Shown in pieces: positions 6,917 to 59,241 of a DNA stretch of 64,000 nucleotides. The stretch covers positions 64,001-128,000 of the IMG/VR virus record IMGVR_UViG_3300032292_000618; one strand, given 5' to 3'. The translations under genes and the position numbers were made by a program. Every line of letters starts with the position of its first letter. The stretch's first letter is position 1. Under the pieces are notes generated by a model. It was not told where the DNA came from. It saw only the letters and a list, made by a program, of their open reading frames with translations, and searched no databases. The DNA is from a virus. Lineage: Duplodnaviria; Caudoviricetes.

Positions 6917-9210
6917 GCAACGGAACAAAAGTTATTAAAAGGAATGGATCTGTTGAAAGTTTGGATCTTAACAAACTACATTTGATGGTGGATGAGGCAT
7001 GTAAAGATCTTACTGGAGTATCTGCATCCCAAGTAGAAATGCAATCTGGCATTCAATTTTATGATGGAATTACAACTGCAGAGGTTCAGGAAATTTTAAT
7101 TCGTTCAGCATCTGATCTTATTGATCTTGAAAATCCTAATTATCAATTTGTAGCAGCAAGACTTCTTTTGTTTTCTGTTAGAAAATCTCTTTATGGTAGA
7201 GTGCAAGATCATCCATCATTCGTTGATCATATTAAAAATTGTGTCAATGTAGGTGTGTATGACCCTATGATCCTGACTAACTATAGTGAGGAAGAACTTA
7301 ACAAACTTGGTCACTATATCAATCACAATCGTGATTATCTATTTACTTATGCTGGACTCAGACAAGTAGTAGATAAGTATCTTGTACAAGATAGAAGTTC
7401 TGGGAGGGTTTATGAAACTCCCCAGTTCATGTATATGATGATTGCAGCAACCATTTTTGCTCAGTACCCCAAAGAAACTAGAATCTCATATGTAAAGAGA
7501 TACTATGACTCAATCTCCAAGCACAAAATCAACATCCCAACGCCAATTATGGCAGGAGTCAGAACTCCACTTCGTCAATATGCAAGTTGCGTTCTTGTTG
7601 ATGTTGATGACACCATGCGTAGTATCGAGTCTAGTGATTCTGCAATTTTTAGGTATGTTGCTCAAAGAGCAGGAATTGGTATCAACGCAGGTCGCATCAG
7701 GGGCATCAACGCTAAAATCAGAGGCGGAGAAGTTATGCATACGGGCGTTGTCCCATTCCTCAAAAAATTTGAGGCAACTGTCAGATCTTGCACTCAAAAC
7801 GGCATCCGTGGTGGAAGTGCTACTGTCCACTTTCCCATCTGGCACAAAGAAATAGAAGATATTCTTGTTCTTAAGAACAATAAAGGTACAGAAGATAATA
7901 GAGTAAGAAAACTAGATTACTCAATTCAAATTAGTAAATTGTTCTATGAAAGATTTATCAGTAACCAAGATATCTCACTATTCAGTCCACATGACGTTCC
8001 TGAGCTTAGTGCTAATTTTGGGCTTGATGGATTTGACAATCTATATCTGGCTGCAGAACGAGATCAGTCTATTCCAAGAAAAACTATTGGTGCTCAAGAA
8101 CTCATTCTGGACCTCCTAAAGGAGAGAGCAGAAACTGGTAGAATCTACATCATGAATATTGATCATTGCAATTCTCACTCATCCTTTAAGGATAAGATTG
8201 AGATGAGCAATCTATGTCAAGAAATTACTCTTCCAACAAAACCACTAAATCATATTGATGACCCTGATGGTGAAATTGCTCTTTGCATCTTGTCTGCAGT
8301 TAATGTTGGCAAAGTCAAGGATGATGAAGAGTTTGAAGAACTTTGTGAACTGTCTGTAAGAGGACTTGAAGAACTGATTGATTATCAAGATTATCCTGTA
8401 GTTGCTGCAGAAAAATCCACCAAAGCAAGAAGGTCTCTTGGTATTGGTTATATTGGTCTGGCACATTATCTTGCCAAACTTGGTTTTAGATATGATTCCC
8501 AAGAAGCATGGGATGCAGTTCATGGATTGTCTGAGTCATTCCAATACTATCTCCTAAAAGCATCTAATAAGATTGCAAAGGAAAAGGGTGCTTGTGAATA
8601 CTTTAATAGAACTAAGTATTCTGATGGTATTCTTCCAATTGATACTTACAAAAAGGATGTAGACGAAATTACTTCAATTCCATACCAGCATGATTGGCAG
8701 ACTTTACGTGCCGAGATTCAGGCACATGGACTTAGACATAGTACATTGTCGGCACAAATGCCTTCAGAGAGCAGTTCCGTTGTGTCAAATGCAACCAATG
8801 GAATTGAACCACCTAGAGGATTCTTGTCCATTAAAAAGAGCAAGAAGGGACCCCTTAAGCAGATTGTTCCCCAGTATCAACACCTTAAGAACAATTACAC
8901 GCTTCTTTGGGATATGCCTAGCAATACTGGTTATATTAATATTGTTGCAGTTATGCAAAAATTCTTCGATCAAGCAATTTCTGGAAACTGGTCCTATAAT
9001 CCAGAAAATTACCCAGACAATGAAGTTCCTGTTAGCGTAATGGCACAAGATTTTCTAACCACTTATAAGTATGGATGGAAGACATCTTATTATCAAAATA
9101 CATATGATAATAAAACAGATGAGGTAAAGGAAGAAAATAATGTTCAAAATCTAATACTAGAACTTTTAAATTCAGAAGGAGAAGATGACTGTGAATCATG
9201 TAAAATTTAG
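6913..9210 (+). CDS. nrdA: Ribonucleotide reductase class Ia, alpha subunit
   Basis: ATP cone, TPIMAG, SCVL, SNLCQEI, C-terminal CESC. Confidence 0.98.
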   Translation: MSNGTKVIKRNGSVESLDLNKLHLMVDEACKDLTGVSASQVEMQSGIQFYDGITTAEVQEILIRSASDLIDLENPNYQFVAARLLLFSVRKSLYGRVQDHPSFVDHIKNCVNVGVYDPMILTNYSEEELNKLGHYINHNRDYLFTYAGLRQVVDKYLVQDRSSGRVYETPQFMYMMIAATIFAQYPKETRISYVKRYYDSISKHKINIPTPIMAGVRTPLRQYASCVLVDVDDTMRSIESSDSAIFRYVAQRAGIGINAGRIRGINAKIRGGEVMHTGVVPFLKKFEATVRSCTQNGIRGGSATVHFPIWHKEIEDILVLKNNKGTEDNRVRKLDYSIQISKLFYERFISNQDISLFSPHDVPELSANFGLDGFDNLYLAAERDQSIPRKTIGAQELILDLLKERAETGRIYIMNIDHCNSHSSFKDKIEMSNLCQEITLPTKPLNHIDDPDGEIALCILSAVNVGKVKDDEEFEELCELSVRGLEELIDYQDYPVVAAEKSTKARRSLGIGYIGLAHYLAKLGFRYDSQEAWDAVHGLSESFQYYLLKASNKIAKEKGACEYFNRTKYSDGILPIDTYKKDVDEITSIPYQHDWQTLRAEIQAHGLRHSTLSAQMPSESSSVVSNATNGIEPPRGFLSIKKSKKGPLKQIVPQYQHLKNNYTLLWDMPSNTGYINIVAVMQKFFDQAISGNWSYNPENYPDNEVPVSVMAQDFLTTYKYGWKTSYYQNTYDNKTDEVKEENNVQNLILELLNSEGEDDCESCKI

Positions 9211-10375
9211 AACAACTGCAGATAGAAATAAAGCCATGGAAGGAATGACAGTATTTAATACCAATCCAGTTGATTCAAAAAAGCAACCAATGTTTTTTGG
9301 ACAACCTCTTGGGGTCCAAAGATATGATTCATACAAGTATCCAATCTTTGAAAAACTCACAACTCAACAACTTGGATATTTTTGGAGACCAGAGGAGGTC
9401 TCCTTACAGAAAGACAGGGGAGATTATCAAACTCTTCGTCCTGAACAAAAACACATTTTTACTTCTAATTTAAAATATCAAATTCTTTTAGATTCAGTTC
9501 AAGGAAGAGGACCTGGAATGGCATTTCTTCCATACTGCTCTCTTCCTGAATTGGAAGCATGTATGACAGTGTGGGAATTTATGGAAATGATCCATTCTAG
9601 ATCTTATACTTACATCATCAAAAATGTATATTCTGATCCAACAGAAGTATTTGATACTATTTTGAATAATGAGAAAATTCTAGAACGTGCATCTACAGTA
9701 ACCAGTGCCTATGATGATTTTATTAATAGTGCACAATCTTATGGTAATTCAAATCTCTGGGTTCATGCTTTGGAAGGAGTTCCTTCTGCACAAGAAGAAA
9801 GAATAGCAATTAAAAGAAAACTTTATAGAGCAATAGCTAATGTCAATATTCTCGAAGGTATCAGATTCTATGTCTCTTTCGCTTGCTCGTTTGCGTTTGG
9901 TGAACTCAAACTTATGGAAGGATCAGCTAAAATTATCTCTCTCATCGCACGAGACGAAAATCAACACCTTGTCATTACTCAAAACATCCTCAATAAGTGG
10001 CGTGAAGGAGATGATCCAGAAATGCAAAGGATCGCTAAAGAAGAAGAATCTTGGGTGATAGAAGCATTTAAAAATGCAGTTAATCAAGAAAAGTATTGGG
10101 CAGAGTACCTGTTCAAAGATGGTTCTATGATTGGTTTAAATGATAAACTATTACAGCAATATGTTGAGTGGATTGCAAATCGTAGAATAAAGGCAATTGG
10201 CATTAAACCAATTTATGATGTTCCTGCTAAAACTAATCCACTTCCTTGGACTGAACATTGGATTAGTTCTAAAGGTCTTCAAGTGGCACCACAAGAAACA
10301 GAAGTTGAGAGTTATGTGGTTGGTGGTATTAAGCAGGACGTAAAGAAAGATACCTTTGCTGGATTCAAACTGTAA
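9185..10375 (+). CDS. nrdB: Ribonucleotide reductase class Ia, beta subunit
   Basis: FWRPEE, EMIHSRSY, LEGIRFYVSF, RDENQH, VAPQETE. Confidence 0.98.
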   Translation: MTVNHVKFRTTADRNKAMEGMTVFNTNPVDSKKQPMFFGQPLGVQRYDSYKYPIFEKLTTQQLGYFWRPEEVSLQKDRGDYQTLRPEQKHIFTSNLKYQILLDSVQGRGPGMAFLPYCSLPELEACMTVWEFMEMIHSRSYTYIIKNVYSDPTEVFDTILNNEKILERASTVTSAYDDFINSAQSYGNSNLWVHALEGVPSAQEERIAIKRKLYRAIANVNILEGIRFYVSFACSFAFGELKLMEGSAKIISLIARDENQHLVITQNILNKWREGDDPEMQRIAKEEESWVIEAFKNAVNQEKYWAEYLFKDGSMIGLNDKLLQQYVEWIANRRIKAIGIKPIYDVPAKTNPLPWTEHWISSKGLQVAPQETEVESYVVGGIKQDVKKDTFAGFKL

Positions 10376-10386
10376 CAAATGTTACA
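10371..10386. promoter_or_regulatory. NtcA-binding site
   Basis: TGTAACAAATGTTACA matches TGTA-N8-TACA and is a near-perfect palindrome; immediately upstream of a glutamine riboswitch. Confidence 0.7.
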
Positions 10387-10410
10387 AAATAACTTGTATA
10401 AATTATAATA

Positions 10411-10452
10411 CGTTCACCCATAAGGGCGGAAGTAGGGAAACTGAAGGAACGC
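10411..10452 (+). ncRNA. Glutamine riboswitch (glnA RNA motif)
   Basis: P1 CGTTC/GAACG; P2 CCC-ATAA-GGG; E-loop GGAAGTA...GAAG; short P3 capped by GAAA. Confidence 0.88.
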
Positions 10453-10483
10453 ACCAATACCCACAAAGTAAAGGAGCAAACCT

Positions 10484-10564
10484 ATGGCACTTATTTTAAT
10501 TAGACAAAAAATGCTTAAAGAGATGAGATTAAAACAATCTCAACTGTATATGGCTATGGTGTGA
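10484..10564 (+). CDS. 26-aa riboswitch-associated peptide MALILIRQKMLKEMRLKQSQLYMAMV
   Basis: AAGGAG Shine-Dalgarno at 10471-10476; lies between the riboswitch and a terminator. Confidence 0.75.
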   Translation: MALILIRQKMLKEMRLKQSQLYMAMV

Positions 10565-10568
10565 TATT

Positions 10569-10596
10569 GAGAGGGTCTTCTGACCCTCTTTTTTTT
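10569..10596 (+). terminator. Rho-independent terminator
   Basis: GAGAGGGTC-ttct-GACCCTCT followed by a T-run. Confidence 0.85.
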
Positions 10597-10603
10597 ATAA
10601 ATA
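10596..10603 (+). promoter_or_regulatory. T4-type late promoter
   Basis: TATAAATA. Confidence 0.75.
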
Positions 10604-10620: not shown

Positions 10621-11427
10621 ATGTTGTCACCTAAAGAATTTCAAAATCTTTATATGTCCATGTATGAGGCAAGAGATGATGATGCAAGGGAGATGAGAAG
10701 ACTTGCTGCTGCTGAAAGACGTGCAGGCAACTCTGATAGAATGGATGCAAAGACAGCATCAAAGTATGCTGGATCAGAAGCAAAGTCAGCAGAAAGAGAA
10801 GATAGGAAATCTAAAGGTAAGCATATTCATGGAATGGCAGATTCTGTTGAGTTGAAAGGTGATATTATTGATGAAAAGAAAGATGATTCATATCTAGAGA
10901 CAGATATGAATAAGAGAAAAAAGAATAATGAAAAGGCAATTGAAGATATGCAGAAGACCAAGGCACATGCTGATATGGTCAAAGCAGCACGTAGACATTT
11001 TGGTGAAGCAAAAAACAAAGAAGGTAAAGAGCAAGGTGCTGATGGTAAAGCTTGCTGGAAAGGTTATAAGTATGCTGGTACTGAAAAGGGCAAAGATAAG
11101 TGTATAAAGTCCGAAGAACTTGAATTAGATGAAAGAGCACTTGATACTGCAGAGACTGGTGAAAAGGAAAGACTTGTAACAGGAATGAAGAAGTCTGCAT
11201 CAGACTTTAAGAAGAGATATGGTGCAAAAGCAAAGTCAGTTATGTATGCAACTGCTACCAAAATAGCAAAGAAAAATATGGATACTTCACAATCAGATAG
11301 AAGATATTCAGTTGAAGAGGTAGATGCTGAGCATAGAACTAGAAAACCATCTCAAATTGCCAAAAGAGAAAAACTTACTAGACTTTTAGATCAAATCAGA
11401 TCTAAAAAAGGCGAAAAGGAAGGTTGA
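10621..11427 (+). CDS. Charged modular protein, probable internal head protein
   Basis: Late promoter; modules KACWKGYKYAGT and DFKKRYG...VMYATATK separated by acidic xxE sites. Confidence 0.65.
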   Translation: MLSPKEFQNLYMSMYEARDDDAREMRRLAAAERRAGNSDRMDAKTASKYAGSEAKSAEREDRKSKGKHIHGMADSVELKGDIIDEKKDDSYLETDMNKRKKNNEKAIEDMQKTKAHADMVKAARRHFGEAKNKEGKEQGADGKACWKGYKYAGTEKGKDKCIKSEELELDERALDTAETGEKERLVTGMKKSASDFKKRYGAKAKSVMYATATKIAKKNMDTSQSDRRYSVEEVDAEHRTRKPSQIAKREKLTRLLDQIRSKKGEKEG

Positions 11428-13695: not shown

Positions 13696-13766
13696 GCGAA
13701 ATTGGTGTAGTGGTAACATCCCATCCTTCCAAGTTGGTGTCACGGGTTCGAATCCCGTATTTCGCT
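13696..13766 (+). tRNA. tRNA-Gly(TCC)
   Basis: Acceptor GCGAAAT/ATTTCGC; anticodon loop CT-TCC-AA; T arm ACGGG-TTCGAAT-CCCGT; no encoded CCA. Confidence 0.95.
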
Positions 13767-16213: not shown

Positions 16214-16285
16214 GGGAGTATAGCTTAATGGTTAGAGCGGGCTCCTTATAAGGGCTTAGTCTGGGTTCAACTCCCAGTATTCCCA
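16214..16285 (+). tRNA. tRNA-Ile(TAT)
   Basis: Acceptor GGGAGTA/TATTCCC with discriminator A; anticodon loop CT-TAT-AA; T arm CTGGG-TTCAACT-CCCAG. Confidence 0.92.
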
Positions 16286-16310: not shown

Positions 16311-16500
16311 AGTCATGGAGAGACTTTAAAAACCCTGGTCGGGATGAACCCCCTTCAGTCATGGAGAGACTTTAAAAATCCTGGTGGAGTCAATATGACC
16401 CTCATTAGGTTTCCAATTTCCTCAAAAAATTGGTGGTGCGGATGGAGGTTACTCCCGCCTGGTTTCCAATTTCCAGTTAAAGAATTGGTGGCGTGCATGA
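16311..16500 (+). ncRNA. Tandem-pseudoknot structured RNA, manA-like
   Basis: Two copies of AGTCATGGAGAGACTTTAAAAAyCCTGGT and two of GGTTTCCAATTTCC...AATTGGTGG; located between a tRNA and sugar-nucleotide genes, the context reported for manA RNAs. Confidence 0.7.
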
Positions 16501-16510
16501 AAGACCTAAT

Positions 16511-59158: not shown

Positions 59159-59241
59159 GGGAGCGTGGTGAAATTGGTAAACACACGACACTTAAAATGT
59201 CGCGGGCATTGCCCTTGTCGGTTCAATTCCGACCGTTCCTA
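59159..59241 (+). tRNA. tRNA-Leu(TAA)
   Basis: Acceptor GGGAGCG/CGTTCCT; anticodon arm CGACA-CTTAAAA-TGTCG; long variable arm; T arm GTCGG-TTCAATT-CCGAC. Confidence 0.95.

Follow-up and report, generated by a model that had tools for sequence, protein, structure and literature searches.

The DNA analyzed here is a window of 64,000 nt (positions 64,001-128,000) of the IMG/VR virus record IMGVR_UViG_3300032292_000618, which is 142.8 kb long as a whole. Directly behind nrdB, the gene for the small subunit of ribonucleotide reductase, positions 10371-10598 of this window form a genuine, conserved and self-contained phage gene module of a T4-like cyanomyovirus, inserted between the stop codon of nrdB and the terminator of this gene. 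A first-pass annotation, made from the sequence alone, had proposed a self-contained unit consisting of an NtcA box, a glutamine riboswitch aptamer, a ribosome-binding site (RBS), an open reading frame (ORF) for a very short peptide and a terminator. All elements on its list are present in the window sequence where it had placed them, and their arrangement in one stretch is kept in related contigs. The arrangement goes beyond chance because the aptamer reaches a high covariance-model score and because the whole layout is conserved in these contigs. The following features are found at the locus:

9185-10375, plus strand: nrdB, ribonucleotide reductase small subunit (PF00268, E 7.6e-57)
10371-10386, no strand assigned: putative NtcA-type operator TGTA-N8-TACA, with the core GTA-N8-TAC at 10372-10385; overlaps the nrdB stop codon
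10397-10404, plus strand: conserved -10-like element TATAAATT, a TA-rich hexamer (TATAAA, 10397-10402), from the alignment of 16 leaders
10404-10409, plus strand: perfect TATAAT, specific to the window; pairs with GTTACA at 17-nt spacing
10409-10455, plus strand: type-1 glutamine riboswitch aptamer (glnA RNA motif, RF01739)
10411-10415/10447-10451: helix P1 of the aptamer
10417-10419/10424-10426: first hairpin of the aptamer
10435-10436/10441-10442: second hairpin of the aptamer
10451-10477, plus strand: linker and candidate expression platform, an imperfect hairpin by hand pairing
10471-10476, plus strand: RBS AAGGAG, 7 nt ahead of the ATG at 10484
10484-10564, plus strand: 26-codon micro-protein ORF, from the program-made ORF list and conserved in relatives
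10569-10598, plus strand: intrinsic terminator, a 9-bp stem with 5 G-C pairs (10569-10590), a 4-nt loop and a T-run

The nrdB gene is 75-83% identical at the DNA level to nrdB of Synechococcus and Prochlorococcus T4-like myoviruses. The cassette behind it, with a single aptamer and the helix peptide only (~230 bp), is the minimal form of its kind. Its boundaries are revealed by a contig from a marine RNA library, which joins 10369 to 10590 and stems from a relative whose nrdB is followed immediately by a terminator that is almost identical in sequence. Since this relative is without 10370-10589, the cassette is a discrete indel that borrows the nrdB terminator. Its presence or absence is polymorphic among related phages, and the terminator of close relatives shows changes in the loop only.

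The glutamine aptamer and its leader

By sequence and covariation, the aptamer of the cassette is a genuine type-1 glutamine riboswitch. The Rfam covariance model supports the corresponding claim of the first-pass annotation: RF01739 matches at 10409-10455 with 52.2 bits (gathering score 35, E 1.3e-8) over model positions 1-53 of 53, and a scan of the whole 142.8-kb record found the same place and no second copy. Across 15 related leaders, compensatory changes occur in five of the ten predicted aptamer pairs, and both hairpins show them. P1 is invariant in these leaders, as are the columns of the aptamer core strands CGGAAGUA and GAAGGAACG. The first hairpin is short in the window and long in its closest relatives.

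Conservation extends from the aptamer to the start of translation. The closest relatives show 100% identity in the leader, from the core of the aptamer as far as the start codon, and a 12-nt block around the RBS is invariant class-wide despite differing peptides. A candidate anti-RBS hairpin can be drawn whose 5' arm consists of the last G of P1 and the 9 nt behind it and whose 3' arm is the 10-nt segment ending with the RBS; in the 15 leaders this hairpin is pairable in 94% of the cells, compared with 14-35% when the partner is slid. When P1 is forced, the RBS of the window is computed to be more exposed (0.54, compared with 0.26 otherwise), most members of its subclass behave alike, and this weakly suggests an ON-switch design as in gifB. 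A conserved expression-platform helix was considered and rejected, because RNAalifold returned none, the hand-drawn hairpin is without covariation and the fold of the single sequence does not outperform those of shuffled sequences (z -0.62).

Relatives of the aptamer and their habitat

An exact-pattern scan of IMG/VR with the three conserved strands of the aptamer returned at least 118 contigs. Among the matches listed, nearly all aptamer copies precede an RBS and a short ORF of 16-65 codons, and these ORFs belong to several unrelated peptide classes. The same pattern occurs in cellular genomes, namely in cyanobacteria and in many marine SAR11, SAR116 and SAR86 genomes, so that most viral copies need not come from cyanophages. 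RF01739 is present in 23 of 151 cyanobacterial genomes.

In other marine phage contigs (L005, L011, L014, L016, L017, L021-L023, L027 and others), single or tandem glnA aptamers are located right after TATAAATA- or CTAAATA-type motifs. Behind them lie at least five unrelated conserved classes of short ORFs (33, 49-51 and 63-65 residues), and their leaders contain a clear covarying anti-RBS helix (CACCU/AGGUG, CACUU/AGUG, CAUCU/AGAUG). Similar short ORFs are also present in genomes of SAR86 and other marine bacteria.

When the cassette, and that of a relative, were compared by blastn with 50,697 phage records, only Synechococcus phage DSL-LC02 was found; tblastn with a 32-residue relative of the peptide gave no match, probably owing to the low-complexity filter. 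In DSL-LC02 (OR032571.1, 2020-2525), the aptamer is split by ~190 nt that hold an annotated 50-codon ORF (2112-2264); beyond this insert, the aptamer is completed by its 3' strand, and two overlapping ORFs encode a YRGV peptide of 45 residues and a helix peptide of 27 residues. In contigs of freshwater RNA libraries, this nested form is deeper, at 13-30x, than the simple form.

DSL-LC02, the only isolate with a related cassette, comes from a lake, and the DNA runs that hold the stretch are mostly freshwater metagenomes. Two freshwater metatranscriptome contigs cover 10427-10559/10561 of a close relative at ~95% identity.

The micro-protein and its host homologues

The ORF behind the aptamer encodes a basic single-helix micro-protein of 26 codons with a net charge of about +4. 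Four contigs with the same synteny (nrdB, cassette and the same downstream gene) carry the exchanges R7K and S19A plus 5-6 synonymous changes. The ratio of nonsynonymous to synonymous polymorphism (pN/pS) is 0.07 in the group of the window, 0.085 in a subgroup with 32-residue peptides and 0.30 in a third subgroup, and the variation is found predominantly at third codon positions. Judged by these substitution patterns, the ORF is a real gene under purifying selection, which bears out the peptide gene of the first-pass annotation.

At 90% identity, the family of the peptide comprises at least 563 clusters, all of which have 14-76 residues. For 120 listed clusters of the family no Pfam domain is on record, and its longest contigs, with up to ~253 kb, are phage-sized. 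An exhaustive profile search of 1.84 billion representatives returned 39 clusters at 50% identity, all with 29-60 residues, and a degenerate DNA pattern of the peptide C-terminus hit 42 loci, four of which are true relatives. For a 32-residue relative, AlphaFold2 predicts one helix with a pLDDT (predicted local distance difference test) of 86.5. Three arrangements of the peptide are found in phages: it stands alone, as in the window; it is encoded by a second cistron, with translational coupling to the preceding cistron of a 45-residue YRGV peptide; or it follows a YRGV motif within one fused protein. The 45-residue YRGV peptide of related cassettes reaches 19.9 bits with Pfam DUF4278, which is under the cut-off of 25.3. 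PHROGs contains relatives of both peptides, helix and YRGV, as phrog_545 and phrog_5049, two families of unknown function. The window peptide itself has no match in Pfam, NCBIfam or PHROGs, a profile search of Protein Data Bank sequences gave no match, and the ESM Atlas returned just generic K/E/Q-rich helices under the informative score.

Homologues are found in cyanobacterial genomes. A six-frame search of 401 of these genomes with the profile of the phage family yielded ten matches at E <= 0.01 per genome (best 5.8e-5), and the genomes concerned all measure 1.7-2.9 Mb. Nine of these matches are located 15-25 nt 3' of a Glutamine-II (Downstream-peptide, RF01704) aptamer; the tenth was discarded as an obvious chance match within a longer frame. 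In the window, the ORF follows 28 nt after its RF01739 aptamer. As riboswitch adjacency was not part of the profile search, it provides an independent confirmation of homology. The host ORFs have 33-56 codons and align to the phage peptides gap-free through the helix, and BLASTP of the window peptide against one of the host peptides (L288) gives 58% identity over 19 residues (E 8e-6). None of the host ORFs scores above threshold in Pfam or NCBIfam. Of six host loci, two carry a GTA-N8-TAC box that lies 21 nt ahead of the aptamer, and such a box was likewise noted for PMM1846 by Klahn et al. 2018 (PMC6212724). By sequence comparison, the window peptide is a phage homologue of a class of uncharacterized picocyanobacterial 'downstream peptides' behind Glutamine-II riboswitches.

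The longer host homologues (L290, L291, L295) contain a Y-x-x-S/T-V/I-F stretch beyond the helix, like the YRGV motif of the 45-residue phage peptide. This suggests that the two-cistron form of phages may be a split and reordered version of one host protein.

The peptide as a possible glutamine synthetase inhibitor

The first-pass annotation had regarded the product as a possible minimal inhibitor of glutamine synthetase (GS) of the IF7/IF17 type, by which the phage would shut down host GS when nitrogen is plentiful. We consider this unlikely. NCBIfam NF052599 (GS_inact_IF7A) gives no match at E values up to 10 with the phage or the host helix peptides, whereas IF7-like peptides behind glnA aptamers are recognized with E 2e-10 and 2.5e-5. 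That cyanobacterial glnA aptamers do precede IF7-like peptides is a point in favor of the idea, and so are control elements that match those of gifA/gifB and a peptide that is short, basic and helical as IF7. In relatives, the peptide is co-transcribed with or fused to the DUF4278-like YRGV peptide, whose score lies below the Pfam cut-off, an arrangement reminiscent of the bipartite IF17; with Pfam, the window peptide does not match DUF4278. The comparison by hhalign places both families in one register with a shared R-x-Q-[SA]-x-L, at scores that are close to chance. The phage family against ten IF7-like peptides has a probability of 2% (P 0.025), a 161-sequence profile scores 11.3 (P 0.078), which 1 of 30 column-shuffled controls also reaches, and the addition of the host peptides brings no gain, the probabilities ranging from 0.7 to 2% overall. 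The invariant arginines of the IF7 alignment are out of line with the invariant residues of the phage family, and the search of 1.84 billion representatives retrieved just the 29-60-residue relatives and no IF7 or IF17. In addition, no IF-mediated GS control has been reported in marine picocyanobacteria (PMC6316151). With no NCBIfam match, a profile comparison at chance level and no DUF4278 motif, the inhibitor proposal could not be upheld, and the resemblance to IF7 (basic helix, R-x-Q-[SA]-x-L) is a lead and not a demonstrated relationship.

The NtcA-type box and the promoter

GTA-N8-TAC starts exactly 38-39 nt ahead of the first P1 base in 16 of 127 viral aptamer copies, the window included; among the matches listed, none of the remaining 111 copies has a box at this register. 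In the 16 aligned leaders, the GTA and TAC triplets are invariant, in contrast to a variable N8, variable flanks and a variable remainder of the promoter (mean column identity 73%). The box is also retained in the four contigs most closely related to the window, although its N8 differs there. The box-carrying contigs resemble cyanomyoviruses; compared with phage records, two of them match overwhelmingly Synechococcus and Prochlorococcus phages, and one of them sits among psbA, psbD and phoH homologues. The bare GTA-N8-TAC occurs 23 times in the window, compared with 8.7 copies expected from shuffles (none of 100 shuffles reaches 23), and the other copies are mostly intragenic and without an extended palindrome. 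Because it is so frequent, the bare motif is weak evidence by itself, and it is the fixed register in relatives that gives the copy of the cassette its weight. On the evidence of these sequences, the NtcA box of the first-pass annotation withstands scrutiny as a conserved pair of triplets in a repressor-like position. An alternative role as a hairpin terminator of nrdB was rejected, because only GTA and TAC and not the stem are conserved and because no T-run follows.

Between the box and the aptamer, only one element is conserved in position, namely a TA-rich hexamer, which lies 11-13 nt after TAC and ends 6-9 nt before the aptamer. With this -10-like element, transcription is expected to start at or just before P1 (~10409-10411), and the center of the box, which is 32.5 nt before the first P1 base, would be near -31; the contigs from RNA libraries give no 5' end. 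The first-pass annotation had relied on the TATAAT 18 nt from the box. This hexamer is present and the repressor-like placement derived from it stands, but it is the element at 11-13 nt that is conserved. TATAAT at 10404-10409 was rejected as the -10 element, since it is conserved neither in the class nor in the closest relatives and since a start ~7 nt beyond it would fall inside P1. Repressing NtcA sites are centered at -30.5 (Synechocystis gifA), -28.5 (Anabaena gifA) and -7.5 (gifB), and activating sites near -41 (PMC6316151). In cyanobacterial gifB-like loci, the box is located 23-30 nt before the aptamer and overlaps a -10 element that follows a clear TTGACA.

Since TATAAATA or CTAAATA immediately precedes many other phage aptamers, a T4-type late promoter was taken into account. 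Within the window, all six copies of TATAAATA are intergenic, five of them 18-35 nt and one 179 nt ahead of an ORF. TATAAAT[C/G/T] variants without the last A are found mostly inside genes, and TATAAATT of the cassette is such a variant. As the exact motif TATAAATA is absent at this position and as the -10-like element varies among the members of the class (CTAAATA, CTATATA, CTAATAT), the late promoter was rejected as the main explanation for the class. A repressor-like geometry is the best reading of these promoter sequences, although the promoter class is uncertain.

An exact copy of TATAAATA at 10596-10603 (plus strand) overlaps the end of the T-run of the cassette terminator. It precedes by 18 nt the ATG of an ORF at 10621-11427 that encodes a K/E-rich protein of 268 residues (phrog_12788, unknown function).

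Activation by NtcA would reverse the sign of this control. In this case, nitrogen stress or a phage-induced accumulation of 2-oxoglutarate would lead to synthesis of the peptide, with glutamine as a second gate. The absence of an own -35 hexamer, as in NtcA-activated class II promoters, would be in line with activation, and Sullivan et al. 2010 proposed that cyanomyoviruses use NtcA sites for genes under nitrogen stress. The distance of 11-13 nt between the box and the conserved -10-like element is, however, not the ~22 nt of activated promoters and fits the repressed gifA type. The hexamer that does lie 22 nt after the box is not conserved and would place the start inside the aptamer. These position rules may fail if a T4-type late sigma factor drives transcription, but if high 2-oxoglutarate activated the promoter and glutamine switched the RNA on, expression would depend on two opposing nitrogen signals being present simultaneously. 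We therefore judge activation to be quite improbable.

Proposed mechanism

The interpretation that we favor, and consider rather probable, is that of an NtcA- and glutamine-gated phage module whose peptide likely acts on a host protein of nitrogen assimilation or signaling. The NtcA-type operator would occupy the -35 region of a -10-only promoter, with its center ~31 nt upstream of the presumed start and a geometry like that of gifA. The transcript would begin at the compact type-1 glutamine aptamer, followed by a short linker that may pair weakly with the ribosome-binding region. Upon glutamine binding, P1 and the nucleotides just 3' of it would be held in the aptamer and the RBS would be freed, which corresponds to an ON switch; for the gifB riboswitch of Synechocystis, this direction has been shown experimentally (PMC6212724). 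The predicted product is the 26-residue basic alpha-helical micro-protein, and transcription would stop at the terminator shared with nrdB. By this logic, the peptide would be made only in a nitrogen-replete cell, where 2-oxoglutarate is low, so that NtcA is off the DNA, and glutamine is high. Such an AND gate for nitrogen-replete conditions is plausible, and the peptide would most likely act by binding a host protein of nitrogen assimilation or signaling.

Several observations weigh against this interpretation. At the level of transcription, nrdB is without an own terminator ahead of the cassette, and read-through transcripts could bypass the control of the promoter. The freshwater RNA contigs reach ~88 nt upstream of the aptamer, for which nrdB read-through or carry-over of DNA are possible explanations. 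The -10-like element matches the T4-type late promoter in 7 of 8 positions, which leaves the class of the promoter uncertain, and the NtcA sites of cyanomyoviruses were read as activating by Sullivan et al. 2010. At the level of the RNA, the anti-RBS hairpin is weak and shows no covariation in the 15 leaders, where its 3' arm is invariant, and RNAalifold on these leaders predicts no platform helix. Moreover, type-1 and type-2 glutamine aptamers were reported to be mutually exclusive in cyanobacterial genomes, and marine picocyanobacteria to have type 2 only (PMC6212724). With a type-1 aptamer in the phage and type-2 aptamers in hosts, the leader is not a simple copy of a host locus.

That the ORF has no function in trans, its translation merely reporting the state of the riboswitch or the RNA being the functional product, is very improbable, because the strong purifying selection at the amino acid level (pN/pS 0.07-0.09), the same peptide family behind a different aptamer type in host genomes, its occurrence as second cistron or fused to another peptide in other phages and a terminator directly after the ORF, which leaves no downstream gene to regulate, outweigh the shortness of the ORF, its lack of a direct match in family libraries and a leader RNA that is stricter than the peptide in the closest relatives.

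A broader version of the favored mechanism is tentative, and we hold it to be possible but doubtful. According to this version, a large family of glutamine- and NtcA-gated micro-proteins of cyanomyoviruses would re-tune host nitrogen assimilation or signaling (GS, PII, PipX, NtcA or another target) only when the cell is nitrogen-replete.

Other features of the window

A wcaG RNA (RF01761), which is a cyanophage-associated cis-regulatory motif, is found at full length at 16405-16502 on the plus strand (94.1 bits, cut-off 42). Three phage-encoded tRNA genes, also on the plus strand, are located at 13696-13766, 16214-16285 and 59159-59241 (57-65 bits).

Significance and comparison with known systems

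In the searchable literature, the targets of phage riboswitches are undescribed; cyanophages and other marine phages are listed as carriers of glnA motifs and cyanomyoviruses as carriers of NtcA sites, and neither this cassette nor its product is described. The gene controlled by a phage glutamine riboswitch is identified here as a member of a conserved family of helical micro-proteins of 26-33 residues, with hundreds of variants on phage-sized contigs. By sequence, it is homologous to the host peptides that named the Downstream-peptide motif and whose function has been open since 2010. It is now possible to study the viral peptides alongside those of the hosts, and the minimal cassette is small enough for direct synthetic tests. 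The label of a 'glutamine-synthetase inhibitor' is corrected as unsupported. If the favored mechanism is true, the phage would read the nitrogen status of its host via two host-type sensors within 230 bp. According to the broader version, these cassettes would represent a class of regulatory, non-enzymatic auxiliary metabolic genes, and the minimal cassette would be the simplest handle on the role of the viral and host peptides.

The glnA motifs of T4-like cyanophages and marine phages (S-CREM1, PMC9964418; S-SCSM1, PMC9602691; Melnitz and Mosig, PMC9004378) belong to the same RNA family and share the phage setting. The papers on S-CREM1, S-SCSM1 and Melnitz/Mosig name the motif and describe no NtcA box, no dedicated promoter or terminator and no controlled micro-protein; in Melnitz, the glnA motif differs further in being linked to a tmRNA gene. 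The PHROGs entries phrog_545 and phrog_5049 are relatives from a catalogue, listed without function or regulatory context, and the window peptide itself matches neither of them.

The Glutamine-II (RF01704) loci, for example Prochlorococcus yfr6/PMM1846 (Weinberg et al. 2010, PMC2864571; Klahn et al. 2018), include one class of host ORFs that is homologous to the phage gene. Host and phage peptides have the N-terminal helix MN-x-L-x-L-I-K-E-K ... R-L-x-x-A-Q-L in common, a glutamine aptamer is located ahead of both, some of the host loci carry GTA-N8-TAC and the function is unknown in both. Different from the phage cassette, the hosts use a type-2 and not a type-1 aptamer, and their proteins are longer (33-56 residues) due to C-terminal extensions that are absent from the window peptide. 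The published discussion of these loci covers the DUF4278 class and not the helix class.

The closest parallel in control is to gifA and gifB of Synechocystis sp. PCC 6803 (PMC6212724, PMC6316151), and the first-pass annotation had already drawn it for gifB. At the sequence level this parallel holds, with the same order of parts: an NtcA box over the core promoter, a glnA-type aptamer, an RBS and a small basic protein. The phage box would be centered at ~-31, which is similar to -30.5 in gifA, and the predicted logic, expression in nitrogen excess only, is the same. Compared with gifB, whose own box is centered at -7.5, the distance between box and aptamer is longer in the phage (38-39 nt, compared with 23-30 nt in cyanobacterial loci), and the clear CGCCUC/GAGGCG anti-RBS helix of gifB-type leaders is replaced by a weak, imperfect one. 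The phage product is not demonstrably related to IF7/IF17, and the cassette resides in a virus and not in a cell. The cassette is a variant of a known host circuit, and the regulatory logic proposed for it is well motivated.

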